From a virus: a DNA stretch of 64,000 nucleotides. Numbering within the stretch: the stretch's first letter is position 1; every line of letters begins with the position of its first letter. Under the pieces are notes generated by a model. That model was not told the origin of the DNA, made no database searches, and saw only the letters and a program-made list of their open reading frames with translations. Position numbers and translations under genes: made by a program. Positions 5,935 to 38,596 of the stretch are shown here, piece after piece. The stretch spans positions 1 through 64,000 of the IMG/VR virus record IMGVR_UViG_3300036790_000500. One strand, given 5' to 3'.

Positions 5935-6639
5935 CTAGCAGTAGAAGTCTGCCAGGGTCGGCCCGCCGTCCTGGAGGGCGTTCACGGCGGCCATGAACTC
6001 ATGGGCCTCCGACACCGTTCCGGGCGCCAGGTCCAACTCGTGGATGCTCTCGAGGTCCGGGTCGTCATCCTCGAGACGCTTTAGGAAGCCAGCCAGGCCG
6101 GTCAGACCCATTCGGGTCCAGCGATACGGCTGTTCACCCTGTGACCGCAGCCAGTCCGCCTCGAACGCGCTGAACAGTTCGTAGTCCCCCTCGATGCTCT
6201 CGTAGTGATGGGCCTCGGCCTGCTGCCTGGCGCTGGCGAGCATGCAGTCCGTGGCCGAACGAACCAAGTCCGCAGCCCGTTCCTGGTCACCCCCACAGAA
6301 CTCCAGGACGACCGGCCAGACGTCGGCCGTCTCGCACTGGGTCTCATAGTCCAGGGTCTTCTCGATTTGCAGAAAACCCTCGTCGTCCTCCTCATAGGAG
6401 AGGGACCGAAGCCGGCCGTCGCTCCAGACCTCGTTCTGTCCGGGAAAATCGTCGTCTGCCGACTTGTGCCTCGTCGGGTCGGCCGGCGCCGGCGGAGCCC
6501 CGTCTTCGACCCTGAAGTAGCCGGCCAGCGTCGCGGGCGGGTTCAGTTCGTCCACGAAGTTCGGGCCCCTCCACTTCTCTGGAGTGTAGAGCCGGCCGTG
6601 TTCCTCTCGCTTCAGGTCTCGCTCGAATTTGATTGTCAT
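5935..6639 (-). CDS. hypothetical acidic protein
   Basis: Start re-set to MTIKFERD after AAGGA. Confidence 0.7.
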   Translation of the reverse strand: MTIKFERDLKREEHGRLYTPEKWRGPNFVDELNPPATLAGYFRVEDGAPPAPADPTRHKSADDDFPGQNEVWSDGRLRSLSYEEDDEGFLQIEKTLDYETQCETADVWPVVLEFCGGDQERAADLVRSATDCMLASARQQAEAHHYESIEGDYELFSAFEADWLRSQGEQPYRWTRMGLTGLAGFLKRLEDDDPDLESIHELDLAPGTVSEAHEFMAAVNALQDGGPTLADFYC

Positions 6640-6652
6640 TTGTTCATTCCTT

Positions 6653-6943
6653 TTAGAACGGCGCCTTCTCATCGGCGATGATGGCCGCCACGACACAGCC
6701 CCAGTACTCCGCTCGAGCCTGGGCGACTTCCAGGGTGATGAGGGTCCACTTGTCCCCGTTGTTCCACTCGCCCCAGTACTCGTCGTTCCCGTCATCGAAC
6801 AGAGCGGTGAACGCCTCATCGTATATGGCGCTGCCCTTCTTGTTGGTACCGACGATGTCGGCCATCGCCGCGTCGACGTCGTCGTACGTCCGAAGCGTCG
6901 GTGAGTTGTGTCCGTCCTCGAACTCGAGATAGACGTTAGCCAT
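6653..6943 (-). CDS. hypothetical acidic protein
   Basis: Start MANVYLEF follows hairpin copy 9. Confidence 0.75.
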   Translation of the reverse strand: MANVYLEFEDGHNSPTLRTYDDVDAAMADIVGTNKKGSAIYDEAFTALFDDGNDEYWGEWNNGDKWTLITLEVAQARAEYWGCVVAAIIADEKAPF

Positions 6944-6951
6944 GTTCCGTT

Positions 6952-6992
6952 CTCCTGTCTCGGTCGCTGTTGATTTGCGACCGCGGTCGGAG
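6952..6992 (-). promoter_or_regulatory. SD-sequestering leader hairpin, copy 9
   Basis: CTCC-GA-CC-G-CGGTCGC-aaatcaaca-GCGACCG-A-GA-CA-GGAG. Confidence 0.9.
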
Positions 6993-7019
6993 GGACCCGC
7001 TCTGCCGGGTCCTTGCATT

Positions 7020-7373
7020 TCATTTCAGAACCGCCACCTTGATGAGCGCCTTGGCGCGGGGGAGGGAGACCTTGGCCGCCGTCGCGACCGGCGCCTCGAC
7101 CACCAGGCTCCGGAGTTCGCACGTTCCCTCCTCCTCGCCGCTGTCGTCCAGGAACACCAGCCACGCATGGCCCCGCTCCCCCTCCACCCGGGCGGCCATT
7201 CCCTCGGCCGTGACCGTGCAGTCGTTCGTGGTCGCCGTCCCCACGCCGACCAGGGCGTAGACGTTCGCCGAGGCCCGGAACGCCATGGGGACGTCGATGG
7301 GCCGCTGGGAGGCCGGGGACGCGTGGACGCTGGAGGCCCAACACACGGCCGCAAAGATGAGCGATTTCTTCAT
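7020..7373 (-). CDS. secreted protein
   Basis: MKKSLIFAAVCWASSVHA signal peptide. Confidence 0.75.
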   Translation of the reverse strand: MKKSLIFAAVCWASSVHASPASQRPIDVPMAFRASANVYALVGVGTATTNDCTVTAEGMAARVEGERGHAWLVFLDDSGEEEGTCELRSLVVEAPVATAAKVSLPRAKALIKVAVLK

Positions 7374-7384
7374 GTCTTTAGATT

Positions 7385-7422
7385 CTCCTGTTTCGATGCC
7401 GGGATTGGCATCGCAATCGGAG
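7385..7422 (-). promoter_or_regulatory. SD-sequestering leader hairpin, copy 10
   Basis: CTCC-GA-TT-G-CGATGCC-aatccc-GGCATCG-A-AA-CA-GGAG. Confidence 0.9.
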
Positions 7423-7443
7423 GGCCGGAGACCCGGCCTTGAT

Positions 7444-7761
7444 TCACCCCCAAAACGATGTCTTCCTCCAGACCACCGACAGCGGAACTCTGCGGTCGAA
7501 GTGCAAGACCCATCGGTAATCATCCAACTGCGCAAACGGCAAGAAGACAACTCCTAGCATGGAAGAATTTTCCCATTCCCAGACCCGACATATCGGCGTT
7601 CGGTCTGCGAGACAGCACTCGAGGCAATGCCTTCCGAACTCCTCCGCCGCATCCCGGTCCCAGGCGACGTGCGCATTCGAATGCATCCGTTTCAAGACGT
7701 CCTCAAAGTCCGCATCTCGAGCGTGCTTAGCGAGGTCACCGTACAGCTCGATGACCCTCAC
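7444..7761 (-). CDS. hypothetical protein
   Basis: GTGA coupling with upstream gene. Confidence 0.65.
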   Translation of the reverse strand: MRVIELYGDLAKHARDADFEDVLKRMHSNAHVAWDRDAAEEFGRHCLECCLADRTPICRVWEWENSSMLGVVFLPFAQLDDYRWVLHFDRRVPLSVVWRKTSFWG

Positions 7762-8018
7762 AGTCCCCTCTGCCCGAGCGTCAGGTACTCGTCTCCGAGC
7801 GGCCCGGCGGCGACTCCGATTGCCACCCACTGGAGGCAGAAGGCCGCCCAGGCGAGGTCCGCCACCATGTCGTTCATGGGGAGTCCCATGGGGTGACCCG
7901 CATACCTGAACCGCTCGTGTATCCAGTCGCGGTACAGAGTGGAGAACGGATGACTGCGGGTGTCGCGGGCCGCCGCGGTTCCGCACCGCGACCAGAGGCG
8001 ATACGGGCGCTCGCTCAC
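7758..8018 (-). CDS. hypothetical protein
   Basis: GTGA coupling to the RNase III gene. Confidence 0.6.
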   Translation of the reverse strand: MSERPYRLWSRCGTAAARDTRSHPFSTLYRDWIHERFRYAGHPMGLPMNDMVADLAWAAFCLQWVAIGVAAGPLGDEYLTLGQRGL

Positions 8019-8470
8019 GGCAGCGCCCCCGTCCCCCGGGCCACCCAGGGGAGCAGCCCCATCGCTCCGGCCACCCACTCCGCCACCGGGAGCCCGCCCG
8101 CCGCGAAGCCGGCCCCGACCAGCGCCTCGACCCCGTCGCAGAGGGCCTTCTCGCTGTTGCGGACCTCCGCGGGCCGGGCCGAGCCCCCCACCGAGAGCCG
8201 CTCTCCCAGCCCGAGCCGCCGGGCGTGCCCGGCCAGGGCGGCCGTGCAGACCAGCCGGGCCCGCTCCTGCGACAGCCGGCCCTCGTCCCACTCGGGCCGG
8301 AGCCGGAGCAGGCGCTCGGCCACCAGGAGGTCCAGGACGCTGTCTCCAAGCCACTCCAGTCGTTCTGAGTGAGGCCCGGAGCGGTCGGACCGGTGCCTCA
8401 AGGCCTGACGGAAGAGGGCCTCGCCTAGACGACCCTGCAACTCCGCCCAGACGACGGCCGGCGCCGTCAC
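8015..8470 (-). CDS. rnc: ribonuclease III, catalytic domain only (no dsRBD)
   Basis: ALRHRS, signature ERLEWLGDSVL, EGRLS..RARLV and KALCDGVEALVGA; all four catalytic acidic residues present; ends after about 151 aa. Confidence 0.92.
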   Translation of the reverse strand: MTAPAVVWAELQGRLGEALFRQALRHRSDRSGPHSERLEWLGDSVLDLLVAERLLRLRPEWDEGRLSQERARLVCTAALAGHARRLGLGERLSVGGSARPAEVRNSEKALCDGVEALVGAGFAAGGLPVAEWVAGAMGLLPWVARGTGALP

Positions 8471-8667
8471 AGGAACACCGCCGCGATGGAGTTGCGGTGC
8501 CGCTTCATGACCCGGACGGCCCGGGGGACGACGCCGATGCGGCGGCACAGGGCCCGCGGCGACTCCACGGACGTGTTGGTCAGGCCGCAGACCTGGCTCC
8601 AGGCGTCCATGTGGTCGTGGGCCTCGACAATCCAGACGTCGGTCTCCGTCTCAACGGCGTACATCAT
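8467..8667 (-). CDS. hypothetical protein
   Basis: GAGGAG RBS; first gene of the RNase III operon. Confidence 0.65.
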   Translation of the reverse strand: MMYAVETETDVWIVEAHDHMDAWSQVCGLTNTSVESPRALCRRIGVVPRAVRVMKRHRNSIAAVFL

Positions 8668-8709
8668 GTCAGGGTCTCCTCTCGCTGTTTGCTGTGTGCT
8701 TTGCTCGGC

Positions 8710-8774
8710 GGCTCCCGGGGGACTCGAACCCCCGCGGGCTATCATCCGGCGGGCTCCTGTGCCCGCGGGGAGCC
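8710..8774 (-). ncRNA. tRNA-like RNA: acceptor stem plus T arm, with D/anticodon arms replaced by a hairpin with an ACAGGA loop
   Basis: GGCTCCC/GGGAGCC 7 bp; GGGGG-TTCGAGT-CCCCC; GCGGGC-ACAGGA-GCCCGC. Confidence 0.7.
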
Positions 8775-8808
8775 GAAAACGACTAGGACGGAAACGGACT
8801 CGCTCGGC

Positions 8809-9303
8809 TTACGGCGGCGGGGAGCCGCTCCCGAGGCAGGCCCCGACGCCCGCCAGGGTGACCGCCACGGAGACCGGGCCGCAGGCCAGCCCGTCGACCC
8901 CGAGTATCACCGCGTGGGAGGCCGAGCCCCAGCGGAGGTCGTCGGGGGACCCGTCGGACCCGACCCCGACGAAGAGGGTGCTCCCGGCCGCGTCGCTGAA
9001 GGCCGCCCAGAAGCGGGGGGCGAGGCCGCCCGTCGGAACGTCCGCGGCCGGCGGAAAGAAGAGGGTCGCGTCGACCTCGCAGGTCGGGGCCGCGGACCCG
9101 ACCGGCTCCATCCCATAGAACGTAAGGGACACGGAGCACAGGGGCGCGGCATCGCCGGAGCCGGAGCCCCTGTCGGAGCCGGAGCCGGAGACGCCCGAGT
9201 CCGGGCAGGGAGCATCCGCGCCCGCCACGCCCCCGCACGCGCCGCCGCCGGCCGCCGACAGGAGGGCAGAACACGCGAGACCGAGCGTCGTTCGAGCCCT
9301 CAC
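8809..9303 (-). CDS. lipoprotein/secreted protein
   Basis: Signal peptide ending ...GGGAC; GS linker. Confidence 0.65.
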   Translation of the reverse strand: MRARTTLGLACSALLSAAGGGACGGVAGADAPCPDSGVSGSGSDRGSGSGDAAPLCSVSLTFYGMEPVGSAAPTCEVDATLFFPPAADVPTGGLAPRFWAAFSDAAGSTLFVGVGSDGSPDDLRWGSASHAVILGVDGLACGPVSVAVTLAGVGACLGSGSPPP

Positions 9304-9692
9304 GACGCCACGTCCGGATACATCGCGGCGTCGCTCAGTCCGTAATCCGCGGCCAGTTTCCGGAAGTCCTGCCGGAGGTTCGCGTTGCTGGACTCGTCAT
9401 GGGTCCGCTGGAGGGCCAGGGCGAACTCCCGGTCCCCATCGGACGTCAGTTCGGCATAGACCGGGCTCCGGACCGTGGAATTCGCGACCGAACCCACACC
9501 GGCGGTCGCCGGGTCGACCCATCCCCAGGCGCAGTGCATGACCCCGCCGCCGGGCGGCCAGAGCGTGTACTCGCAATTATTATAATAATAATCTTCGAGC
9601 CCATTCGAACCGCGTTGCACACAGCGGCGCCAGCCCTGGGAGGCGAGGCCGCGGACGGCCCGGTCGAACATCTCCTGCTTCGTGAGACCCAT
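9300..9692 (-). CDS. phage hypothetical protein, paralog of 1730..2146
   Basis: Shared motifs; RBS in hairpin copy 11. Confidence 0.8.
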   Translation of the reverse strand: MGLTKQEMFDRAVRGLASQGWRRCVQRGSNGLEDYYYNNCEYTLWPPGGGVMHCAWGWVDPATAGVGSVANSTVRSPVYAELTSDGDREFALALQRTHDESSNANLRQDFRKLAADYGLSDAAMYPDVAS

Positions 9693-9698
9693 TGCATC

Positions 9699-9738
9699 CT
9701 CCTGCTTGACCCGCGAAAAGCCGCGGGCCCAGTACGAG
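9699..9738 (-). promoter_or_regulatory. SD-sequestering leader hairpin, copy 11 (variant)
   Basis: CTCG-TA-CT-G-GGCCCGCG-gctttt-CGCGGGTC-A-AG-CA-GGAG. Confidence 0.75.
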
Positions 9739-9804
9739 ACGGCAAGGGCGGTACGAGACGGCAAAAGGCCGGCCCGCAAACACACCAATATCAGAGGGAC
9801 TTGC

Positions 9805-11558: not shown

Positions 11559-11777
11559 TTATAAGAACTATTATACCAAATAATGAGTTATTATAATAAT
11601 GTTTTATTTATTTGTTATTTTTATTTGATGAGTTTATTATAATAAATAATGAGTTATTATAATAATGTTTTATTTATTTATTTATTTATTCCTTTCCTTT
11701 TTCCTTATGAGTTTATTATATCAAATAATGTTTTATTATAATAATGAATAATGGGTTCCCCATAAAACATCATTAGA
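11559..11777. repeat. AT-rich repeat tract (ATGAGTT(T)ATTATAATAA units) at the strand switch; promoter array/origin/terminus candidate
   Basis: Almost only A/T in a GC-rich genome; multiple TATAAT on both strands. Confidence 0.85.
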
Positions 11778-11978
11778 TTCGGGCCGGCTTACCCCGCGCG
11801 GGTCGGACGGGAGAGTTTCCCGTGAAACCGTCGCAACTCCGTGCCCGTCACCGGACCGCGCCGCCGGCGACCCGCGCGAGAGAAGACCGAAGAAAAACCG
11901 GAGGAAACCCGACGGGACCGTCGCAACTCCGCGCGTCACTGGCCGCGGCGGACCCACGCGCCATAGTTTGGTTCATCA

Positions 11979-12836
11979 ATGCCGCCGGTCCTTCCGCCCC
12001 TTGCCCTCTTCGTCCCCGGGACGCTCGTCTCGGGCCTCGCCGAGGCCGGACCGCGCGGTCACACGGCGCCCCTGTCCCGTCTGGACCCCGAGGCTCAGGT
12101 GGCCTGGGACCGCGACGTCGCGGACTCGCTCGCCGCCGGTCAGGCCCCCACGTTCAGGCCGGGTCCCGACGGCTCCGTCTCGGCCTCGCTCTCCAACGGC
12201 GGCGGACAGCGGGTCTATGACCCGACGACTAGGAGTTGGTCCCGCCCGGCGCCGGGCGCCGGGGACCCGAAGGACCGAGACGACGCGCGCTCCCGCCCCG
12301 CGGGCTTCGGCGGTCACGGGCTATCGCCCGTCGAGCGCGGGGACGCGTACCTCCTCGACCGCTTCTCCCGGACTGAGGCGGAGCAACGGAGCAGCGTCGA
12401 GCGGGCGGCGGACGTCGCGTTCGGGCGGGGCTGGCGCAGCCTCATCGACTCCGTCTACGGCCCGGGCGCCGTCACGCGGCTCCTTCGGGACCTCTGGCGG
12501 AACTTCTACTCCGACCACGAGGCAATCGGCGAGGTCTACCACTACTACGACGTCGCCCAGCGGGCCGCGGACCAGGTCGCCCATGACCGCAGCGGCGGTG
12601 CGCGCGGGGCGGACGCGGCCGGCGGACGACAGCGGGGTGCCTGGGACGACGCCATGAGGGCCCAGGCCCGCGACGCGATAGGCGCCTATCCGATGCGGGT
12701 CGAGCCGCGATACGACCACGTCGGGCGCGACTCCCGAGTCCGAAGCGAGCACCCCCTGTCTCCCGAGTTCTTTGCCGGTGTCTGGTCGATGAGTTATCCC
12801 AACGAAGAGGAACCGGACTGGGAACAGGACTACTGA
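11979..12836 (+). CDS. hypothetical protein
   Basis: 285-aa ORF abutting the PolX gene. Confidence 0.65.
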   Translation: MPPVLPPLALFVPGTLVSGLAEAGPRGHTAPLSRLDPEAQVAWDRDVADSLAAGQAPTFRPGPDGSVSASLSNGGGQRVYDPTTRSWSRPAPGAGDPKDRDDARSRPAGFGGHGLSPVERGDAYLLDRFSRTEAEQRSSVERAADVAFGRGWRSLIDSVYGPGAVTRLLRDLWRNFYSDHEAIGEVYHYYDVAQRAADQVAHDRSGGARGADAAGGRQRGAWDDAMRAQARDAIGAYPMRVEPRYDHVGRDSRVRSEHPLSPEFFAGVWSMSYPNEEEPDWEQDY

Positions 12837-12837
12837 G

Positions 12838-13455
12838 ATGGGGAGCGGTCCGCGGCTTCCCCGGGAGTACGCCCTCACGCGCGCCCTCCGGCTCCTTGAG
12901 GCCCTCGACGGCCGGGCGGTCCTCTGCGGCTCCCTCCGCCGCGGCCGGGACGAGGTGGGCGACATCGACCTGGTGCTCTCCGGAGTCTCCCTGTCGGAGG
13001 CCCTCTCCCGCGTCGCGGCCCTCGGCGTTCCGGTTCCGGCGCGCCCCCCGGCGGCCGCGGAGTCCCGCGGCCCGCGAACGGGGTTCCACGTCCCGACCTG
13101 GGGCATCGGGGTCGACCTCTGGGAGCCGGACCCGGTCGGCGGGCTCGGGGCCTGCGTCCTCCATGCCACGGGGTCCGGACCCCACAACACCCTGATGCGG
13201 CGCTGGGCCCGGGTGGTCCACGGCCGCTCCCTCACCTGGTCCGGCGTCGTCGACCTGGCCACGGGGGCGCGCCTGGCTCCCCCCGGGGACCCCGCCTCCG
13301 AGGACTCGACTCGGGCCCTCGTTCCCGGCTGGCCCCTCCTGCCTCCCGAGGAGCGCGAACTCGACCCGTTCGACCCGCCGGCCTGGCTCCGTCCGCTCCT
13401 GGCGGAGATGAACGAGCGCGAGGCCCGACGGTCCCCGGCCTCGTCTGAGGAGTGA
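12838..13455 (+). CDS. minimal X-family DNA polymerase (palm/thumb only)
   Basis: CGSLRRGRDEVGDIDLVL, VDL and LHATGSGPHN..MR motifs. Confidence 0.88.
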   Translation: MGSGPRLPREYALTRALRLLEALDGRAVLCGSLRRGRDEVGDIDLVLSGVSLSEALSRVAALGVPVPARPPAAAESRGPRTGFHVPTWGIGVDLWEPDPVGGLGACVLHATGSGPHNTLMRRWARVVHGRSLTWSGVVDLATGARLAPPGDPASEDSTRALVPGWPLLPPEERELDPFDPPAWLRPLLAEMNEREARRSPASSEE

Positions 13456-13503
13456 CCTCCCGCCTCTGGCCATGGCTTCCGTGGCCGGGCGCTCGGGCCT
13501 CCC

Positions 13504-13875
13504 TCAGACGCGCCGGCGGCCTCTTGGACGGTTCATGAGCGGCACGGCTGGCCACTCGGTCCAGGAGCCCGCGTCCCCGTTCGGGACCGGATTATAACTC
13601 CAGTGTCGCACGGTCCAGTGACCGAGCGCGCCGGCGCCGGGAGGCTCCTCGTCCGCCCAGAGGAACTGCTCGAGGAGGACCGGCGGTGAGAGCGGCTGCG
13701 CCGCCGACACGGCCGCCGACACCAGCGTCCTCCGCTCGATTCGGAGTCGCACGACCGGCGGGTCCCCGCGCTCGAACTCCGCGTCCCAAGCGACGCCGCA
13801 GCCGGGAAGCATCCGCTCCGCCCACTCCCAGGTCAGGTCCCTTAGGGTCTCATGGATGACCTCGGGACCGGTCAT
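13504..13875 (-). CDS. hypothetical protein
   Basis: ATGA overlap with 13872..14537. Confidence 0.6.
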   Translation of the reverse strand: MTGPEVIHETLRDLTWEWAERMLPGCGVAWDAEFERGDPPVVRLRIERRTLVSAAVSAAQPLSPPVLLEQFLWADEEPPGAGALGHWTVRHWSYNPVPNGDAGSWTEWPAVPLMNRPRGRRRV

Positions 13876-14537
13876 CCGGAGCAGCCCGGGGACGAGCACT
13901 CCACCGTCGAGAACCCCACGTAGGCCGGACCGCCGCAGCGGGGGCAGGCATGGGGAAAGCGCCCGGCGACAAGGGGGGGACCCGACGGCATGAACTCCCG
14001 CGTGTGTGTGGGAGGCGTGGGCCATTGAAACGTCGGCAGGACGCTGATGCGAAGTCGCGACGGATTAACGTCCATGGGGGCCGCCCCGCTCGGAACCAGG
14101 GGATGAGTGACCCGAGCGAGCCAGTCGACCCAGGGCATGGGCTCCACGGCGCTGCGGTCGGCCGGCTCGGTTCCGGCCGGGAACGTGTACGAGCGGAGCC
14201 GCCACGGACTCTTGACGACGACGGGGCCGAAGACGGCGCCGAAGCCGTGGCTGATGTCGGTCCACTCGACGCTCATGACGTAGTGGACGCCCGGTCGCTG
14301 CAGGGCAGTCGCAACGTCCGAGAACTTGTCGAAGTCCTGTGCTGCCGTGCTGAAGGGGACCGCACACAGGCTCAGACCGGCGTCGTAGTAGTAATGGAGG
14401 CCGCACTGGTCGGGGGCCGGAACGCAGGCGCTGTGCAAATGGCTGCTGAGGTCCACCAGTTCGTCGCTCTGGTGACGCGTTGACCCGTACTCGTCGTATC
14501 CCCATGCGGTCACGGGACGGGGGTTGGGGCTTACCAT
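13872..14537 (-). CDS. hypothetical protein with C-terminal Zn finger (PHACPRCGGPAYVGF...C...C), leaderless
   Basis: TGTGATACGAT 6 nt upstream of the ATG. Confidence 0.7.
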   Translation of the reverse strand: MVSPNPRPVTAWGYDEYGSTRHQSDELVDLSSHLHSACVPAPDQCGLHYYYDAGLSLCAVPFSTAAQDFDKFSDVATALQRPGVHYVMSVEWTDISHGFGAVFGPVVVKSPWRLRSYTFPAGTEPADRSAVEPMPWVDWLARVTHPLVPSGAAPMDVNPSRLRISVLPTFQWPTPPTHTREFMPSGPPLVAGRFPHACPRCGGPAYVGFSTVECSSPGCSG

Positions 14538-29461: not shown

Positions 29462-30097
29462 GTGGCTCTCATCTACTGTTTAGTTGACCCTCGTGACGGT
29501 GCGATTCGTTACATTGGACAGACGTACAACGAGGCTCGTCGACGCAAGGAATACGGTGGATACCGTCGTGCTGGCGGCGGACACGTTTGGAACTGGTTGC
29601 GTTCCGTCAAGGATGGCGGATTGCAACCGACGTTCGTCCCTGTCGAGTACATCGATGACGCAACCGATGACATCCTTGACGATGCTGAGATAGGTTGGCA
29701 CTCGCTTTTCGCGGAACACGGTTACGACCTGACCAATGACATTCGAGCACTCGGTCGGTCGAATGGGAAACGTCGTGGAGCCGCCATCAAGGCAGCAAAG
29801 TCTGGTTCTGGCTGGGACAAAACGACCAAGAACTATGCTCGTGGAGAGCGCAATCCAAGGACGGGTAAACCCGGTACCATGCTTGGCAAGACGCTTTCGC
29901 TGACTGCACTCGTGAAGATACGTAAGAGGGTTCGGTGTGTCGAGGACGGACTCACATTCTCTCACGGACAAACCGCAGGTGAGTTCTATGGAATCCACCC
30001 TGCCTCCGTGAAGTGGTCTGCTCGTCATCGAAGACGGACCAAGACCGAAAACGGTCAATGGATACACTTCGAGTACGTTGAGGACGGTGCAGAATGA
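29462..30097 (+). CDS. GIY-YIG homing endonuclease with NUMOD-like C-terminus
   Basis: IYCLVDPRDGAIRYIGQT...R, E..W, LTN; KRVRCVEDG.TF. Confidence 0.85.
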   Translation: MALIYCLVDPRDGAIRYIGQTYNEARRRKEYGGYRRAGGGHVWNWLRSVKDGGLQPTFVPVEYIDDATDDILDDAEIGWHSLFAEHGYDLTNDIRALGRSNGKRRGAAIKAAKSGSGWDKTTKNYARGERNPRTGKPGTMLGKTLSLTALVKIRKRVRCVEDGLTFSHGQTAGEFYGIHPASVKWSARHRRRTKTENGQWIHFEYVEDGAE

Positions 30098-31425
30098 GTG
30101 AGCGGAGGAAACTATTGTGGCTGGCCGACCATGCCCTGATACCGAGCGGCGTCGGGATACAGGTCAAATATGCGATGGAAGGTCTCATCAAGACTGGGAA
30201 GTATCAGGTCTTCCAACTCGGCGGAGCCATCAAGCATCACGACTATCGTCTTCAGTGCGTGGCCCCTGAGGTTTACGGCGACGGTACATGGCTCATCCAA
30301 CCGGTCGACGGGCACGGAAACAAGGAGATACTGCGGAAACACCTTGCGGAGTACAAGCCTGATGCGTTAGTCCTCACGACCGACCCGCGCTTCTTCTACT
30401 GGGTTTGGGAGATGGAGGACGAGATTCGAGCCGTCTGTCCCATCGTCTATTGGCACGTCTGGGACAACGACCCCATCCCCGAGTTCAACCGACCAATCTA
30501 CGAAGCGACCGACCACATCATTTCTCTTAGTCTGAAGACCCACGGCATCATGCAGGGCCTCGGTCTCCCAGCCGAACGCTTCAGTTACGTTCCGCATGCA
30601 GAACCGAGTGAGTTGTTCAAGCCGTTGCCCGATGATGAGGTGATTCAGGCTAGGCAGAAGAGTTTCGGTCCGTTCGCGGACAGGGAGTTCATCGTGATGT
30701 GGAACAACCGGAATGCCCGCCGAAAGATGACCGGTGATGTGATTGAGAGTTTCGCCAGGCTGACCAAGAAGGTCGGCCGACACAAGTGCGCTCTCCTCAT
30801 GCACACGGCGGCCGGTGACCAGGAGGGCCAGGACGTTCATTCCGTCGTGAGGAAACTCGGCGTGGAGGACCTCCTCATCATGTCAGAGGCGCGGGTCACA
30901 CCGGAGCAGTTGAACGTGATGTACAACTGCGCGGACGTCGTGCTCAACATCTCGTCTAACGAGGGGTTCGGTTTGGGAACGCTTGAGGCCCTGTACGCTG
31001 GCACTCCCATCGTGGTAAACATGACGGGCGGCCTGCAGTTTCAGGCCGGCGACTGGTGGTGTGACCTCGAGGACTTCAGTGACCAGGACAAACTCACGAA
31101 GGTCGCTCGCTCTCGCCGGTCCAGTCACCGCTGGTGGGGTGAACCGGTCTTTCCGGCGGCTCGTAACCTCGTGGGCTCGCAGCAGGTCCCGTACATCTAC
31201 GACGACCGCGTCAACGACCAACAGGTCGCCGATGCCCTTGAGAAGGTCTTCAAGTTGGGTCGAAAGGGCCGGAAGAAACTGGGTCTCGAGGCTCGAGAGT
31301 GGGCCCTCAAGGCCTTCGGTATGCAATCAATGATTGAGGGATGGGACAGGGCCCTGACATCGGCCATCGACCGGCACGCTGATGTCCGTGGTAAAATGGG
31401 TCAGGTCCGTGTCGCTGCTCTCTAA
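30094..31425 (+). CDS. glycosyltransferase, GT-B (GT4-like)
   Basis: NRNARRK, SSNEGFGLGTLEA. Confidence 0.9.
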   Translation: MSERRKLLWLADHALIPSGVGIQVKYAMEGLIKTGKYQVFQLGGAIKHHDYRLQCVAPEVYGDGTWLIQPVDGHGNKEILRKHLAEYKPDALVLTTDPRFFYWVWEMEDEIRAVCPIVYWHVWDNDPIPEFNRPIYEATDHIISLSLKTHGIMQGLGLPAERFSYVPHAEPSELFKPLPDDEVIQARQKSFGPFADREFIVMWNNRNARRKMTGDVIESFARLTKKVGRHKCALLMHTAAGDQEGQDVHSVVRKLGVEDLLIMSEARVTPEQLNVMYNCADVVLNISSNEGFGLGTLEALYAGTPIVVNMTGGLQFQAGDWWCDLEDFSDQDKLTKVARSRRSSHRWWGEPVFPAARNLVGSQQVPYIYDDRVNDQQVADALEKVFKLGRKGRKKLGLEAREWALKAFGMQSMIEGWDRALTSAIDRHADVRGKMGQVRVAAL

Positions 31426-31434
31426 AGGAAATCC

Positions 31435-31728
31435 ATGAAATACACGCTCGAACCCAAGAACAAACTCCTCGTGATTAAGCCGCTTGAGAGCGACAGCAAG
31501 ATAGGAGCCCTGTTCATTCCGTCGACCGCTAACCACGGCGCCTATCGCCAGGCCGTCATCGTGGCGGTTGCCGATGACGTGGAGCCGGCCCTCAAACTCA
31601 ATCCCGGTGATAGGGTCATCTACGATACCATCGGTCAGATTGATGTGCGGGTCGGAAACCAGGGCTTCTCGCTCGTTTCATCGAAGAACGTGCAGTCGGT
31701 CATCCACCAAACGCACGGGGACGAGTAA
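31435..31728 (+). CDS. groES: co-chaperonin GroES-like
   Basis: LEPKNKLLVIKP...GALFIP...IVAV...GDRVIY. Confidence 0.75.
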   Translation: MKYTLEPKNKLLVIKPLESDSKIGALFIPSTANHGAYRQAVIVAVADDVEPALKLNPGDRVIYDTIGQIDVRVGNQGFSLVSSKNVQSVIHQTHGDE

Positions 31729-32706
31729 ATGGCCGTCCTCGTGACCGGCGCCGCCGGCTTCATAGGCTCCAACCTCGTCGATGAGTTGATGACCCAAGGC
31801 TTTCAGGTTCTCGCTCTTGATGACCTCTCCGAGGGCAGGATGGAGAACCTTGAGCGCTGGCGCGGCCACAAGAACTTCCAGTTCATTCGTGGGTCGATAC
31901 TGGATTACGATACAGTCCGTCGTGCCGCCGATAACACGGCCTGCGTCTTCCATTTGGCAGCGGATTCTCGAATTCAGACAGGAATCGCAGACCCTCGTCA
32001 CTCGATTGAAACGAACGTCGTGGGAACGGCCAACGTGGCCGAGGCGGCCCGACAGGGTGGTTGTCCGCGCATCGTTTACTCAGCCAGTTCCTCGGCCTAC
32101 GGTCGTAAGAACGAGCCACCGATGGTCGAGGACATGCCGACAGACTGTCTCAACCCGTACTCGATGTCGAAGAAGGCGGGCGAGGACGTCATGGACGTCT
32201 ATAATCGCCTCTATGGAATCAGCACCGTCAGCCTCCGGTACTTCAACGTTTACGGTCCCCGTCATCAGGAGGAGGGCCGGTACGCCACCGTCATCGCCAT
32301 TTTCCGACGGCAGTTGCGAATGGGGCAGATGATGACCGTAGTCGGCGACGGTACCCAGCGCCGGGACTTCACCTTCGTCGGGGACGTGGTCCGGGCCAAC
32401 ATGCTCGCCATGATGAACCGAGAGGCGACCGGCGTCTTCAACATCGGAACCGGTACAAACTTTAGCGTGAATGAACTTGCCGCGCTCATCGATGGCGACA
32501 AGTACGGGACCAACTGGATGAACAAGGTCGAGTACGTCCCTCCTCGTCTGGGCGAGGCCAGCGTCACGCTGGCAGATAACACCAAGGCCTGGAACGTCCT
32601 CGGCTGGAAGCCGCAAGTGTCACTCGAGCAGGGCCTCGATGTCATCGATGTGTATGAGAAGAAGATGGGTGCCGGCTCCAGTCGCATCATCCTGGCGGGG
32701 CGCTGA
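31729..32706 (+). CDS. NAD-dependent nucleotide-sugar epimerase/dehydratase
   Basis: VTGAAGFIGS, YSMSK, LRYFNVYGP, RDF. Confidence 0.93.
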   Translation: MAVLVTGAAGFIGSNLVDELMTQGFQVLALDDLSEGRMENLERWRGHKNFQFIRGSILDYDTVRRAADNTACVFHLAADSRIQTGIADPRHSIETNVVGTANVAEAARQGGCPRIVYSASSSAYGRKNEPPMVEDMPTDCLNPYSMSKKAGEDVMDVYNRLYGISTVSLRYFNVYGPRHQEEGRYATVIAIFRRQLRMGQMMTVVGDGTQRRDFTFVGDVVRANMLAMMNREATGVFNIGTGTNFSVNELAALIDGDKYGTNWMNKVEYVPPRLGEASVTLADNTKAWNVLGWKPQVSLEQGLDVIDVYEKKMGAGSSRIILAGR

Positions 32707-35700
32707 TGGCGAAGAGGAAACGGCTTCTTTTCACGGGTCCCGTTCTCACAGCCTCAGGCTACGGTGTGCATGCCCGTCAACTCCTGGCCGGTCTGGTGGA
32801 ATCGGACCAGTATGACGTCTACGTTGAGAGCCTGAAGTGGGGTGAGACCCCCTTCCTCACCGACCCGAGCCTCGAATGGATTCGACAACTAGTCGCTAAG
32901 CAGGCGCCGGCGCAGCCGGACGTGCACGTCCACGTCACCATTCCCAACGAGTTCAAGCGCCGCGCGCCGCTGGAGATTGGCGTCACCGCCGGCATCGAGG
33001 TCGACCGCGTCTCCCCGCAGTGGCTCCTGAAGTGCAACTCCGAGGTCGATGTAGTCGTCGTCCCCAGTGAGCACTCGAGGGTCGCCTTCGGAGTGCAGTA
33101 CCAGGGCTCGAACGGTCAGCAACTCAAACTTGAGAAGCCAATCCTCGTGATTCCTGAGGGAGTGGACACCGCTTGGTTCAAGCCGGCGCGAGCAGAGTCT
33201 GAACTCTTGAATCGAGTCGAAGTGCCGGATAGGAACTTCGTCTTCACGGGACTCGGGTTGGACAAGCCCCAAGGCCGTGACCGAAAGAACGTCACTCGCT
33301 TGATTGAGTACTTCTGCAAGGCCTTCAGCGGAAGCAAGGGCATCGGTCTAATCCTGAAGACCTCCGTCGTCAACGGCTCCTCGCTCGACTATGAAATCTG
33401 TAAGAAGCGAATAAAGGAAATCAAGACGTCGGCTGGGTTTCCTGACGCACCGGTCTTCCTTGTCCATGGACGGGTCTCTGAGACCGAGATGGCCGGGATT
33501 TACAACGACCCTCGGGTGCTCGCCGCGGTTAGCCTGACGCACGGTGAGGGCTACGGACTTCCGTTGATTGAGGCAGCCGCCTGCGACCTCCCTGTCATCG
33601 CGACCGACTGGTCGGGTCACCTAGACTTTCTTACCCACCCCGATGGACGTAAACTCTTCGTTCCTGTGGAATATGACCTGACCGAGGTCTGGCAGGAGTG
33701 TACCTGGGACGGCGTCATCGAGCCGGGAACCCGCTGGGCGGTTGCCCGTGAGGCCGACGCAATCACCAAACTGCAGAAGATGGCGCTCTCCTCCGAGACT
33801 CCCCGTAAGTGGGCCCAGGAACTCGGCCAATCTATTCGTGAGCGCTTGAACCTAAAGGCCACCCAGGACCTCTTCAACGCTGTCGTGGCGCAGGCCTGTC
33901 GGGAAATCGACAGCGCTAGGCCGTCCCAAGACCGGGATGCCTTCGTCGCTGCGCTGCGGTCACAGGTCTCCGCCAGGGGCCTCAGCCTCGTCTATACGAT
34001 GCCCATGTCAGCGGGTGACGTGTTCCTTAGCACCGGTGTCGTGAGTGCCCTCCGACGTCGCCATCCAGGCCACCGGGTCTACTTCGCCACCCAGGGTCGA
34101 TACTTCGACATCATCAAGGACCTAAGGCTTTCAGACGGAACGCTGTTGGTGGATGAGTTGCTGGAGTACCAACCCTGGATGCAGGAGGTAGCGGTCCTCG
34201 AGGACGTCTTCGATGAGGTCTACACCCCGAACCTAGCCGTACAGATGCTTTGGTCGAACTGGGTCCACAAGGGCAATGGTCGACACCTCCTGGACGAGTT
34301 CGCGGTCCAATGCGGGGTGAACGCCCTGGAGCCGGTCCTCCCGGACATGGAGCCAATCGATGTCCTGAGCGTGGGAGACACGTGGGTCGCCGTCCACTCC
34401 GGAGGACAGAAGTCCGCCCGCGGCTACGCCCACTGGCCGGAACTGGTCAAGAACATCAGGTCCGCCGGACTAAAAGTCGTCCAAGTCGGCGCTTCCGATG
34501 ACCTCTCCGTGGGGGAGGTTGACTTAGACGTCCGGGGGAAGACCGACCACCGGCATTTGGGGATTTATCTCTCGAACTGCGCTGCATTCGTGGGAATCGA
34601 CAGTTACCCGATGCACGTTGCCGCGGCCTGTGGGACCAACGTCGTAGCCCTCTTCGGAAGTTCCTACGCGACCACGACCGGCCCGCGCAAGTCCGGGCGA
34701 GGTAAACTCAGGGTCATGGAGACCCCCGACCGGAACGGCTGTGACCGGGCCTGCTACAAGGACGTCTGCAAGGTTGACGCGGGGAATCCCTGCATCAACA
34801 ACATCAAGCCGATATACGTCTATCTCGACCTGATGAAGTCACTCGGTATCACCGACGCACCGTTCTACACGGAGCATCACCCTAGGATTGGCGGCTACAT
34901 TCATTTGATGAACCCGAAGAGGAACGGGTACCCATTCGTTCAAAGCATCAATAGCATGCTTGGGTTCTGTGCGGAGGTCATCGTCGTCGACGGCGGCTCC
35001 ACCGACGGAACCAAGGAGGAACTCGAGGCGATGTCCCTGGCTGACCCGCAACTGAAGGTCATCACCCGTGAGTGGGACCCCGAGGAGCCCGGGATGGACG
35101 GGATGCAGAAGGCCTTCGGTCGAGCCATGGTCTCCCCTGACTGCGAGTTCCTCTGGCAGCAGGACGCCGACGAGGTCGTGCACCCTGACGATTGGCCGAA
35201 GATTGTGCAACTCTGCAAGCGGTTCCCCGCCGACGTGGACGTCATGCACCTCCCCGTGATTGAACTCTGGGGCGACGACCGTCACGTTCGCACCGACCGG
35301 CACAGTTGGAAGTGGCGGCTCTCCCGGAACAACCTCCGGGTGACGCACGGCATCAACACCCAGGCTCGGCAGTTGGACCCCAAGACGGGTCGGGTCTTCT
35401 CGAAGCCCGGCCAATCGGACGGCTGCGAGTACATCGACATCGTGACCGGTAACCACCTGTCGCATCGCGGCTTCTACAACCAGGAACTCGAGCGCCTGCG
35501 ACGGGAGGACCCCGAGGAATACGGTCGACAGATGAATCGGGTCTTCGCGACACTGCCCAGCGTCTGGCACTACAGTTGGGCCGACCTACCGCGGAAGGTG
35601 CGGAACTTTCGAGACTTCTGGAACGCTCAGTGGTCAGTCCTCTACCAACAACCCGTCGAGGCCCGCTTCGCGGACGTGGTGTCGGAGGAGGACGTCCAAC

Positions 35701-35801
35701 GAAAGGCCAAGGAGTTATTGGAGCGCGGCGGGGAGCATAGCCCCGCTCCAACGTTCCTAATTGACCGTGAACCACCTGCAAGCATGAAGGAAAGACAATG
35801 A
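32706..35801 (+). CDS. three-domain glycosyltransferase (GT4 + GT9 + GT2)
   Basis: HGEGYGLPLIEA; SAGDV...GIDSYPMHVAAA; VVDGGSTDGT...DADE. Confidence 0.88.
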   Translation: MAKRKRLLFTGPVLTASGYGVHARQLLAGLVESDQYDVYVESLKWGETPFLTDPSLEWIRQLVAKQAPAQPDVHVHVTIPNEFKRRAPLEIGVTAGIEVDRVSPQWLLKCNSEVDVVVVPSEHSRVAFGVQYQGSNGQQLKLEKPILVIPEGVDTAWFKPARAESELLNRVEVPDRNFVFTGLGLDKPQGRDRKNVTRLIEYFCKAFSGSKGIGLILKTSVVNGSSLDYEICKKRIKEIKTSAGFPDAPVFLVHGRVSETEMAGIYNDPRVLAAVSLTHGEGYGLPLIEAAACDLPVIATDWSGHLDFLTHPDGRKLFVPVEYDLTEVWQECTWDGVIEPGTRWAVAREADAITKLQKMALSSETPRKWAQELGQSIRERLNLKATQDLFNAVVAQACREIDSARPSQDRDAFVAALRSQVSARGLSLVYTMPMSAGDVFLSTGVVSALRRRHPGHRVYFATQGRYFDIIKDLRLSDGTLLVDELLEYQPWMQEVAVLEDVFDEVYTPNLAVQMLWSNWVHKGNGRHLLDEFAVQCGVNALEPVLPDMEPIDVLSVGDTWVAVHSGGQKSARGYAHWPELVKNIRSAGLKVVQVGASDDLSVGEVDLDVRGKTDHRHLGIYLSNCAAFVGIDSYPMHVAAACGTNVVALFGSSYATTTGPRKSGRGKLRVMETPDRNGCDRACYKDVCKVDAGNPCINNIKPIYVYLDLMKSLGITDAPFYTEHHPRIGGYIHLMNPKRNGYPFVQSINSMLGFCAEVIVVDGGSTDGTKEELEAMSLADPQLKVITREWDPEEPGMDGMQKAFGRAMVSPDCEFLWQQDADEVVHPDDWPKIVQLCKRFPADVDVMHLPVIELWGDDRHVRTDRHSWKWRLSRNNLRVTHGINTQARQLDPKTGRVFSKPGQSDGCEYIDIVTGNHLSHRGFYNQELERLRREDPEEYGRQMNRVFATLPSVWHYSWADLPRKVRNFRDFWNAQWSVLYQQPVEARFADVVSEEDVQRKAKELLERGGEHSPAPTFLIDREPPASMKERQ

Positions 35802-36124
35802 GTAGTCACTGGGAACAAGGAAAGATTGACAGAGCACTTCGAGGCGAAACTCAGAAGCGAATCCAGAAGACTGAGAAGAGACCGGGTCCGGTCAAGCGGG
35901 CCTTCAGTCGAATCAAGCGAATGTTCTTCTCCTTGTTCTTCCGTGTTCGATGGGTTCTCCTCGACCGCAAGCGGACGTATGCGCGGATGCGTCAGTTGAC
36001 CGGCGTCGACGAACCGAAGCGGAAGCGTGAGCCAATACACATCGCGGTCGGCCCCACTATCACGCCCGCCGACATGCACGAGCCTGCGCCGGCTCTGAGC
36101 CAGAGACGCTGGAAGGACAACTGA
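35798..36124 (+). CDS. basic hypothetical protein
   Basis: ATGA coupling. Confidence 0.6.
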   Translation: MSSHWEQGKIDRALRGETQKRIQKTEKRPGPVKRAFSRIKRMFFSLFFRVRWVLLDRKRTYARMRQLTGVDEPKRKREPIHIAVGPTITPADMHEPAPALSQRRWKDN

Positions 36125-36127
36125 CCG

Positions 36128-36892
36128 TTGTCCCTGATTGCAGACATCTTCGTTACGATACGGGGTGGAAGAGAGGACCTCACTGCTCGTTCCCTGCGTT
36201 CACTTCGGGAGAACACGACGCACGGTCAGTATCGCCTTACACTCTGCTTCGACGGGACGTCTCGGGGGGAGCGACACGACCTGGAGACGGCCTTCAATCC
36301 GGCCTATTCCCTCTCCTCAGACTTGAATGAGGGTCTCGGTCCGACCATCAATCGAGCCGTGGCTCACATCAAGTCCGTCAATGATTGGTACTCCGACCCG
36401 AAGGCATCGAACATGGCGCTTGTGGCCCCGTACCTCTGCATGGTCCAGGACGACGTCCAATACTCGAAGGACTGGCTACCCGTCCTTGCGTCACGATTCA
36501 GGGCCTACGGCATGCAGTACAAGTTGGGGTTCGCCTCGGGCATTGAGTGCGTCGAGCATCCGGTTCGTCAGTCCCTGATGCATGACGGAAGCATCGTTCT
36601 CAAGGACTGGCTTCGCGCTACGATGATGCTCTCGACCCGGGAGTACTGGGAGAGCATGATGCCGATTCCCCGTTTCGACCCGGAGACGGGTCAGGTACGG
36701 GCCAAGCCGAACGACGGCATGGGCAGCGGGGTGGATTGGTGGGTCATTCGTGACCACGAGAACTCCGTTTGTAGGACCGGACGCACGAACCTCGTGTTGC
36801 CGGGGCTCTGCCAGCACATGGGATATGCTCAAAGCACATGGTTGAAGCGGGAGATGCCGGAGAGCGACAGCGACAAGGAGAAGATTGGATGA
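36128..36892 (+). CDS. GT-A fold (GT2-like) glycosyltransferase
   Basis: NEGLG..IN, QDD, DW, QHMG. Confidence 0.7.
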   Translation: MSLIADIFVTIRGGREDLTARSLRSLRENTTHGQYRLTLCFDGTSRGERHDLETAFNPAYSLSSDLNEGLGPTINRAVAHIKSVNDWYSDPKASNMALVAPYLCMVQDDVQYSKDWLPVLASRFRAYGMQYKLGFASGIECVEHPVRQSLMHDGSIVLKDWLRATMMLSTREYWESMMPIPRFDPETGQVRAKPNDGMGSGVDWWVIRDHENSVCRTGRTNLVLPGLCQHMGYAQSTWLKREMPESDSDKEKIG

Positions 36893-37938
36893 GGAGGCTC
36901 ATCACTGTCTCCTACACCTCTCTGAACGCCTCGGGGGGTGTGCCGGCCTTCAACCGAGCCCTACACTCGGCCTTTCCTGACCGGGAGTGTAAGCACTTCT
37001 GCTGGGAGGACTTTCCATGGCATCCGGAGGTCGACGCCCAGGGAGAGACCGAGTGGGGCAAGGCCCGTCGCTTGAACGAGTACCTGGTCCGCTCCCGGCT
37101 CATCGGCACGGACGACGTCGTGGTGGCCGACGGCTTCTGGGCGGCCGGCCTCGAACATCTCCCGAAGGCGATTAGCGTGGCGCACGGCATCTGGTCGCAC
37201 CTCACCCTTGAGGACGTCCAGGCCGGGAAGCAGCCGGACATGCCGTATCACCATGCGGCCCAAGTGGAGTTCCGTCGACGCTGGTGTGGCCTCGGCAAAC
37301 GCATGACGGCAGTCTCTGATTTCATCGCCAATGAGATGAAGCGGCAGTGGGGGTTCGAGGTCGACCGGGTCATCAACAACGGCGTTGACACGGAACTTTG
37401 GAAGCCGATGACAAATCGCCTCCCTCGGGCACGCCCTCTCGTCCTCCACGGAGTTAACGACGCTTCTAATCTCAACAAGGGCGGTGACCACGTGGTTCTG
37501 CTCGCAAAGGAACTCGATGCAGACGTCCTCTCATTCGATGATGGAGTAGACAGATATCGATTCGCTGGGAAAGATTTCACTAGACCTGAAGCACTCGCTC
37601 AGGCAGACATTTTCGTCCATCCCTCCGGTTACGAGGGAAATTCCATGATGGTGGCTGAGGCCTTGGCTTGCGGTGTCCCTGTCATCGGCTATGACGTCGG
37701 CTACCTCTGGTCCATCAAGGACTGCTACGGCTCCGTCATCGATAGGACCAAGCGGTCACCGGAGTTTACGCTTGCGGCCGCTCGAGACCTGCTCTCTAAC
37801 GAACCGCTGCAGACCAGGCTTCGTGGTCAGGGTCGTGACCTGGCAACCAGAGACCTCAGCATCGTTTGCTTCCGGGACAGTTGGCGGGAGTACATTGATT
37901 TTGTTGAAGGGAGGCGTCGTGATAAGGGTTCGCGTTGA
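36889..37938 (+). CDS. glycosyltransferase GT4
   Basis: AVS, INNGVD, PSGYEGNSMMVAEALACGVPVI. Confidence 0.88.
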   Translation: MRRLITVSYTSLNASGGVPAFNRALHSAFPDRECKHFCWEDFPWHPEVDAQGETEWGKARRLNEYLVRSRLIGTDDVVVADGFWAAGLEHLPKAISVAHGIWSHLTLEDVQAGKQPDMPYHHAAQVEFRRRWCGLGKRMTAVSDFIANEMKRQWGFEVDRVINNGVDTELWKPMTNRLPRARPLVLHGVNDASNLNKGGDHVVLLAKELDADVLSFDDGVDRYRFAGKDFTRPEALAQADIFVHPSGYEGNSMMVAEALACGVPVIGYDVGYLWSIKDCYGSVIDRTKRSPEFTLAAARDLLSNEPLQTRLRGQGRDLATRDLSIVCFRDSWREYIDFVEGRRRDKGSR

Positions 37939-38596
37939 CGACTATCCTAGGACTTCTAAACACGAGCCCCAGCACACGCGGTCGACCTTTCGGGACTTCC
38001 ACCGTGTTCTGAGTGAGGGCATCGGAGGCAAGCGGTATCTCCTTGGGGTGGTGCCAGGCCAGTGTGACCCAGACGACCTCCTGCTCATACGAAATGAGTT
38101 GGATGTGGTCGTCGGCATGCACGGGACGGACCACGATGAGGAGCGGTTGACTAGGAACGGCGGCAACCAGTTCGAACCCTATTTGACAGCCAATCAAATC
38201 TCTCAGGCTCTTGATGAGCATCGAAAGGCCTTAGGGTCTGCCCTCGGTCAGTGGGCGACCGTCTACATGCCACCGCGAAACGTCATCGACGAACGTACTG
38301 TCACAGCGGCCTTAGCGTGCGGCTTTCACTACTTCACATCCGGACCCGAAACGTCCGCTGACGTTCGAGAACGCCATCCGTTGATGTTCATCCACAGTGA
38401 GAAGCCACACGAGTACGGGCGCTCGGATGAGATGTTCGCGGCTCGCAGCCACCTTACATTGGCCGAGCGGGCCGCCGAAGGCCGCGACATCACGCTGTGT
38501 CTTCACTGGACGTGGGAAACGAACGTGGGACTGGGCCAACTTCGGAGGTTCCTAAATCAGATACCCAAGGCCCTCTTCGCGGACTTCGACGGATGA
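37919..38596 (+). CDS. polysaccharide deacetylase-like (NodB fold)
   Basis: RVDD, MHGTDH, PPRN, LH. Confidence 0.75.
   Translation: MIRVRVDDYPRTSKHEPQHTRSTFRDFHRVLSEGIGGKRYLLGVVPGQCDPDDLLLIRNELDVVVGMHGTDHDEERLTRNGGNQFEPYLTANQISQALDEHRKALGSALGQWATVYMPPRNVIDERTVTAALACGFHYFTSGPETSADVRERHPLMFIHSEKPHEYGRSDEMFAARSHLTLAERAAEGRDITLCLHWTWETNVGLGQLRRFLNQIPKALFADFDG

Follow-up and report, generated by a model that had tools for sequence, protein, structure and literature searches.

RNase III is a central RNA-processing enzyme whose domains act as homodimers, and the textbook phages T7, lambda and T4 use the RNase III of their host. To our knowledge, Mini-III is so far the sole recognised natural form of the bacterial enzyme without a dsRNA-binding domain (dsRBD). 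A gene for an RNase III catalytic domain that stands alone on a phage contig raises the questions of whether it encodes a complete enzyme, to which class that enzyme belongs, and which RNA it might cut. The phage gene described here encodes an RNase III that is intact, lacks a dsRBD and belongs to a lineage other than that of Mini-III. A second lineage of dsRBD-less enzymes, independent of the first, would be a new natural experiment in target choice by a catalytic domain alone, and the enzyme, if site-specific, could serve as an RNA tool, as Mini-III does.

Genomic setting of the RNase III gene

The whole stretch of DNA analysed (the window) covers the first 64 kb of an IMG/VR virus record that is 107 kb long and comes from soil. 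The phage sequence was present, as fragments, in DNA sequencing runs of two soil-metagenome studies, one of which may represent the sample of origin, and the search of sequencing runs for it listed no RNA run. The contig is that of a tRNA-rich myovirus: 31 tRNA genes lie in the window, and the baseplate-wedge protein shares 35% identity with its counterparts in Microcystis phage Mel-JY01 and the Flavobacterium 'immuto' myoviruses.

The genes from ~11.5 kb down to position 1 run leftward from an AT-rich region with a minus-strand sigma-70-like promoter. Many imperfect inverted repeats of 20-35 nt lie in this region (11559-11940), and sigma-70-like promoters face both ways, at 11618-11590 on the minus strand and at 11612-11640 on the plus strand. 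The RNase III gene had been assigned to a phage early region in an earlier note made from the sequence; it does lie in the leftward phage operon near the sigma-70-like promoter, and it is from this layout only that early expression is suggested.

Two orphan ORFs flank the gene on the minus strand. The one upstream (66 aa, 8467..8667) has an acidic N-terminal half, a basic C-terminal half, a GC content at third codon positions (GC3) of 0.96 and an AGGAG 8 nt ahead of its ATG at 8667, and the one downstream (86 aa, 7758..8018) has a hydrophobic stretch and a GC3 of 0.84. For each, the sole database match was the ORF itself, and no match was obtained in Pfam, PHROG, NCBIfam or PADLOC. A tRNA-like element, recognised by sequence and fold, lies at 8710..8774 on the same strand and comprises an acceptor-type stem and a T arm (GGGGGUUCGAGUCCCCC); the order in transcription is the tRNA-like element, then the AGGAG, then the ATG of the 66-aa ORF. 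Farther upstream, a lipoprotein-like ORF of 164 aa (ORF164; 8809..9303, minus strand; GC3 0.92) encodes a signal-peptide-like stretch followed by a Cys and has no family match. PADLOC gave no match for the RNase III protein or its neighbours, and the neighbours between 4.6 and 11.5 kb had no Pfam or PHROG match.

The RNase III gene and ORF164 both have a GC content of 0.77, as compared with 0.68 for the 66-aa and 86-aa ORFs and 0.58-0.64 for most neighbouring genes. Because of this raised GC, the block at ~7.76-9.3 kb, headed by ORF164, looks like later cargo.

Coordinates and coding frame

The RNase III gene occupies 8015..8470 of the minus strand, stop codon included, and reads from a GTG at 8470 to a TGA at 8017..8015 (151 codons). 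Its start codon overlaps the TGA of the 66-aa ORF as GTGA, and its own TGA overlaps the GTG of the 86-aa ORF, again as GTGA; because of these start/stop overlaps the three ORFs are translationally coupled, in agreement with the coupling to the two small ORFs that had been proposed for the gene. The phage would make RNase III from the leftward operon, as the middle gene of this coupled trio. In the RNase III frame, GC3 is 0.91-0.98 and GC is lowest at second positions, a pattern that is expected for a real gene.

A 177-aa version beginning at GTG 8548 was rejected on account of an 80-nt overlap with the upstream gene, and none of the in-frame codons next after GTG 8470 is a start codon. GTG 8470 is the sole usable start that preserves the conserved N-terminal helix. 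The public gene call (P0002; 102 aa, 8015-8323) begins only at V50, an internal GTG, and lacks the catalytic ERLEWLGD signature. This call is too short, since homology to relatives begins at about residue 15, and an automated annotation that leaves out ERLEWLGD would overlook the fact that the enzyme is intact.

Catalytic domain and predicted fold

The 151-aa protein matched PF00636 (Ribonuclease_3) with an E-value of 1.9e-19 (70.7 bits against a cut-off of 27) and PF14622 (Ribonucleas_3_3) with an E-value of 5.5e-19. The ORF, the motif positions and the Pfam matches thus substantiate the earlier description of a protein of about 151 aa with ALRHRS (residues 23-28), ERLEWLGD (36-43) and CDGVEA (111-116, within CDGVEALVG at 111-119), and both parts of the RNase III superfamily signature, (E/Q)RLE(F/W/Y)LGD and D..EA(L/V/I).G, are present. 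In a gapless alignment with E. coli RNase III (7r97), residues E36, E39, D43, E63, D112 and E115 correspond to E38, E41, D45, E65, D114 and E117 of the E. coli enzyme, and the metal ligands equivalent to E41, D45, D114 and E117 are all retained. The position of E. coli F42, which we take to be the aromatic 'ball' of the dimer interface, is a Trp (W40) in the phage protein and F, W or Y across the family of short relatives described below. Among the seven conserved acidic residues of bacterial RNase III listed in PMC8708148, six are retained, while the E100 position is occupied by Ala.

An AF2 model obtained with a 14-row alignment (pLDDT 93, pTM 0.87) has nine helices and a disordered end comprising the final 14 residues. 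The best PDB matches of Foldseek were the enzymes of E. coli (7r97), C. jejuni (3n3w and 3o2r) and M. tuberculosis (2a11), with a probability of 1.00 and TM of 0.76-0.82; the fold, as modelled, is that of an all-helical RNase III domain. The phage protein ends ~35 residues past the catalytic E115, whereas classical enzymes run on into a linker and a dsRBD. A PF00636 domain, intact catalytic residues and no dsRBD bear out its description as a stand-alone RNase III catalytic domain.

The protein is probably a working dsRNA endonuclease that acts as a homodimer by means of its catalytic domain alone. Paired catalytic domains would share a single cleft that contains two metal sites, and the dimer would cut a double-helical RNA in both strands or, at an internal loop, in one. 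Mini-III shows that an RNase III can be active without a dsRBD, as does an E. coli enzyme from which the dsRBD was removed (PMC3867540). This engineered E. coli protein has the same architecture as the phage protein; its domain alone is described as cleaving canonical sites and as requiring low salt and Mn2+ (Sun et al. 2001, cited in PMC3867540), and because of the latter requirement the activity of the phage protein without a partner may be weak. The E. coli deletion is an artificial enzyme, however, whereas the natural short family has a tail of its own and may have adapted.

Because RNase III dimerises via its catalytic domain and the interface aromatic is retained, the phage protein might instead pair with the host RNase III and alter or poison it, and specificity could shift in a dimer that combines a single dsRBD with a foreign half-site. 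Activity has been described for artificial heterodimers in which one subunit is functional or one dsRBD is present (refs 39 and 40, as cited in PMC3867540). Nevertheless, no cellular Rnc is more than ~50% identical to the phage protein, and all of the catalytic residues are retained, although a subunit that served only as a poison could do without them; we consider pairing with the host enzyme quite improbable, and homodimeric action is the preferred reading in what follows.

Absence of the dsRBD

A gene that ends where the linker and dsRBD would begin could also be a non-functional remnant of a captured rnc, its dsRBD having been lost by truncation, and both the compositionally foreign block and the public annotation as a 102-aa fragment would be in keeping with such an origin. 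The protein scored 98.1 bits with TIGR02191, for which the cut-off is 166.25, and matched model positions 13-133 of 219. A dsRBD profile built from the linker-plus-dsRBD part of 107 full-length relatives, run with HMMER filters off against the stop-to-stop frames of 6500-9500 (51 frames), gave no match (best E 0.28), and Pfam dsrm (PF00035) gave no match at E<=1 in the 107-kb record, whereas 10 of 14 control genomes were matched; since the completeness of the record is put at 52%, a dsRBD protein could lie elsewhere in the phage. The 86-aa ORF was rejected as a dsRBD (tblastn E 0.055 with a 3-kb database, unconfirmed by the profile search), and tblastn alignments extending past the RNase III stop codon were likewise discarded, as they held no real similarity.

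With no dsRBD remnant in any frame of 6500-9500, the gene is not a visibly decayed rnc. The earlier note had stated that the protein lacks a C-terminal dsRBD and had pointed to a frameshifted dsRBD in the downstream sequence as the mark of a decayed rnc; the lack was confirmed for the protein, the 6500-9500 frames and the record, and the profile search for a frameshifted domain was negative. A non-functional remnant is further argued against by the intact catalytic residues, by a C-terminal tail that is common to equally short proteins, by the strong coding signal and by the coupling of the gene to its neighbours. We regard a dead remnant as very improbable.

A lineage of short relatives

When 1.84 billion representatives were searched exhaustively with HMMER, 12,111 relatives were obtained. 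The closest of these, at 45-52% identity, include many metagenomic proteins of 130-165 aa, and several of the short relatives lie on contigs of 13-207 kb and were therefore not shortened by contig ends. In the ESM Atlas, the nearest clusters were RNase III-domain proteins of 147-177 aa. The short relatives end 20-31 residues after EA..GA with Gly-hydrophobic-hydrophobic-(Pro), and this G-h-h-(P) tail was found in 15 of 17 short relatives as opposed to 1 of 180 dsRBD-bearing relatives. The C-terminus of the phage protein, ...GLLPWVARGTGALP, fits both the length of the short tail and its motif.

With the tail columns included, the short proteins formed one group in a catalytic-domain tree (SH-aLRT 86, core 94). 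When the tail columns were removed, the short proteins required three changes instead of one and were still strongly clustered (0 of 500 shuffles gave as low a number); 116-135 columns were used in the trees. On these alignments a single origin of the short-tail group is likely, although monophyly is not firm, and we propose that the group is a distinct short lineage, marked by the G-h-h-(P) tail, with the classical bacterial enzyme rather than Mini-III as its origin.

Residues E39, G42, D43 and E115 are invariant in the short relatives at only 40-52% identity, and their constancy despite this divergence argues for purifying selection. The position of D112 (equivalent to D114) is N or S in 3 of 14 family members (P0003, P0148 and P0166), in which the other three ligands are retained; not every member need be active, therefore, and some of those with N or S may be nickases or RNA binders instead of full nucleases. 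The median pI of the family is 6.0 versus 5.4 for canonical catalytic domains, such that charge has not been raised to offset the missing dsRBD.

Actinomycetota were surveyed in 301 species genomes, 11 of which are unpublished (G149, G083, G089, G240, G269, G175, G002, G227, G019, G049 and G121). One RNase III match was found in 299 genomes and two in just one genome, from which it follows that a short paralogue is not a normal cellular gene in this phylum. The second RNase III match of G193 is on a 1.8-kb contig. The search for the relative P0157 yielded two contig fragments only, of 1.3 and 1.8 kb, and the small ORFs on them had no PHROG match; judged by its tightly packed small ORFs without family matches, this context looks phage-like. 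P0166, searched for in species genomes and plasmids, led to ordinary rnc only, and family alignments run against IMG/VR retrieved only dsRBD-bearing or giant-virus genes. On contig L112, the one context of a family relative that was analysed, a 95-aa Cys-rich ORF with a lipoprotein-like signal (1463-1750) is located directly upstream of a short RNase III and overlaps its start; a lipoprotein-like ORF is found near a short RNase III both there and in the window (ORF164), possibly by coincidence.

Comparison with known RNase III classes

Classical Rnc (class 1; 7r97, 3n3w and 2a11) provides the best sequence and structure matches of the phage protein. The two have in common the ALTHRS-like, ERLEFLGD-like and D..EA motifs, the acidic residues and the length of the alpha5-alpha6 loop, which is classical in the phage protein because the E. 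coli alignment is gapless there. Classical Rnc has a linker and a dsRBD, whereas the phage protein has neither and ends in the short G-h-h-P tail; unlike classical Rnc, moreover, the phage-borne protein scores under the TIGR02191 cut-off. Helical structure in the loop region of the AF2 model is limited to short turns (88-91 and 100-104).

Mini-III is a cellular enzyme that matures 23S rRNA with the help of ribosomal protein L3. It consists of a single RNase III domain without a dsRBD (MrnC/YazC, class 4 in PMC5141509), as does the phage protein, which for want of a dsRBD must, like Mini-III, bind RNA via its catalytic domain alone. In place of the long alpha5-alpha6 loop, however, Mini-III has helix alpha5b and a short loop (PMC5141509). 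No Mini-III PDB chain was retrieved at E<=10, either by phmmer with the protein or by hmmsearch with the family profile, and the same searches returned Rnc, Drosha and Dicer at 1e-15 down to 1e-51. At the level of sequence, then, the phage protein is not a member of Mini-III and no specific kinship with it is detectable; the ALRHRS element of classical RNase III, to which the earlier note had drawn attention, is indeed part of an Rnc-like and not a Mini-III-like protein.

Class-1 RNase IIIs are also carried by viruses, and those of SPCSV (CSR3), ascoviruses, iridoviruses and giant viruses are the structural neighbours of the phage protein in BFVD, where the significant matches were RNase IIIs of eukaryotic viruses only, with no phage entry. 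These enzymes are all from eukaryotic viruses, are 185-865 aa in length as opposed to 151 aa here, and act against RNAi, as has been described for SPCSV CSR3 (PMC7280029). Their example suggests a counter-defence or housekeeping nuclease that clears long double-stranded or structured RNA; such RNA could come from divergent and convergent transcription of the large phage genome and might trigger or feed host immunity. The location of the gene in a cargo-like block of differing GC, together with other orphan genes, is consistent with this role. On the other hand, neither the protein nor the ORFs around it matched a defence or anti-defence family in PADLOC, nothing at the locus points to bacterial dsRNA sensing, and an enzyme without a dsRBD is a poor general dsRNA scavenger. 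We therefore think a clearing role unlikely.

Occurrence among phages

No match to the 151-aa protein was found by tblastn against 50,697 deposited phage records or by scanning IMG/VR and JGI metagenomes, the phage sequence had no nucleotide match among deposited phages, and no close relative of the gene from another phage was found. When a full-length RNase III served as query, 14 of the 50,697 records were matched; many of these were short and unannotated, and several were fragments of 1.4-15 kb that may be host DNA. The matches in INPHARED include OR845599.1, OR845485.1 and fragments named 'Listeria phage LM' and 'Enterococcus phage', and two deposited records share 94-96% identity with the RNase III ORF on IMG/VR contig L003. 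Such records resemble host rnc DNA under phage names, and counts of phage RNase IIIs in collections of this type are therefore inflated. At least 556 contigs in IMG/VR carry RNase III genes, many of them in giant-virus bins; each of the 41 IMG/VR RNase III ORFs examined continues for 83 aa or more beyond the match, and the dsRBD profile matches every one of them except one. No paper on an RNase III encoded by a phage emerged from the literature searches, and the 'phage-encoded RNase' of PhiKZ was rejected as a precedent, being an RNase H. Bona fide phage-encoded RNase III seems, on these searches, to be very rare.

Leader hairpins as candidate substrates

The heptamer ACAGGAG occurs 22 times as compared with an expected 9. 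Within the first 11.5 kb the minus strand has eleven of these sites, 9 of which are ribosome-binding sites with a preceding hairpin. Folds and alignment delimited 11 leader hairpins on the minus strand, at positions 662, 1215, 2440, 3151, 3817, 4534, 5246, 5862, 6952, 7385 and 9699. The hairpin nearest downstream of the RNase III gene (7385..7426, minus strand), whose fold buries a ribosome-binding site, is a candidate substrate by inference only, and the nearest upstream (9699..9742, minus strand) belongs to the same family according to alignment and pair counts.

Each hairpin has a 4-bp CUCC/GGAG helix, two pairs in an apparent internal loop, a 7-bp stem and a loop of 6-9 nt. In the alignment of the 11 elements, 93.7% of cells were paired and 9 of 13 pairs showed compensatory changes; the covariation score was 0.62 versus 0.25 in shuffles (0 of 500 reached the observed score), and slid controls of the alignment were 32-50% paired. 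Pairing and covariation together indicate that the hairpins are real structured RNAs that sequester the Shine-Dalgarno sequence. The extra pairs in the apparent 5x5 internal loop (alignment columns 11:39 and 12:38) change from U-A to C-G, and two covarying pairs at this place give a nearly continuous, irregular helix of 16 layers, a size of helix that is compatible with RNase III-type cleavage.

The RNase III gene lies inside the hairpin array, with 9 of the 11 hairpin-led genes transcriptionally downstream of it, and no hairpin of this kind precedes the RNase III unit itself. This geometry is suggestive of a link between enzyme and hairpins, for which position is the only connection. Our leading guess for the substrate is a tentative one: the protein may be a dedicated processing enzyme that nicks or cuts the 11 leader hairpins in which GGAG is paired with an upstream CUCC. 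In T7, host RNase III cuts early mRNAs at intergenic hairpins and leaves a protective 3' hairpin on the upstream message. A nick in the 3' strand between the stem and GGAG would in a similar manner free the ribosome-binding site here and leave a 3' hairpin upstream, the analogy being limited in that the T7 enzyme is the host's. Alternatively, cleavage would destroy the ribosome-binding site, as does T4 RegB, which PMC5141509 mentions as a phage endoribonuclease that cuts GGAG ribosome-binding sites; RegB is thus a functional analogy, a phage-encoded cutter at GGAG, but not an RNase III.

Several observations weigh against hairpin cleavage. The GC content of the enzyme gene (0.77) differs from that of most hairpin-led genes (0.58-0.64), which suggests that the enzyme joined an existing hairpin system later, and the leader helices fall short of the ~20 bp found in many substrates of the cellular enzymes (PMC3867540). 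Other readers of the hairpins, namely the ribosome, temperature, an RNA-binding protein or the host RNase III, are equally possible. Whatever probability the readings set out above leave over falls to some other phage or host RNA as the substrate.

If hairpin cleavage is taken further, the locus could be a self-contained RNA-processing regulon, in which an early dsRBD-less RNase III, made from a leader-free mini-operon flanked by the tRNA-like element, would cleave the 11 hairpins that lock ribosome-binding sites and so time the translation of the surrounding small genes. We offer this fuller scheme as speculation, to be given less credence than hairpin cleavage as such; were it true, the short-tail lineage would be an enzyme of mobile elements with a specialisation for helices that are short and irregular. 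The phage enzyme with its 11 candidate sites would offer a compact system for the question of target choice, and the interest of the locus would be much greater if the link between enzyme and hairpins were shown.

Other features of the window

A second block of very high GC (0.74) extends over 12001-14000, across the AT-rich divergence region, while the rest of the window has a GC content of ~0.60. On the plus strand, a glycosyltransferase cluster at 30094-40104 encodes a GT4-type protein of 443 aa and a multi-domain GT1/GT9/GT2 protein of 1031 aa, and also holds a gene for a B12-binding radical SAM protein (535 aa).
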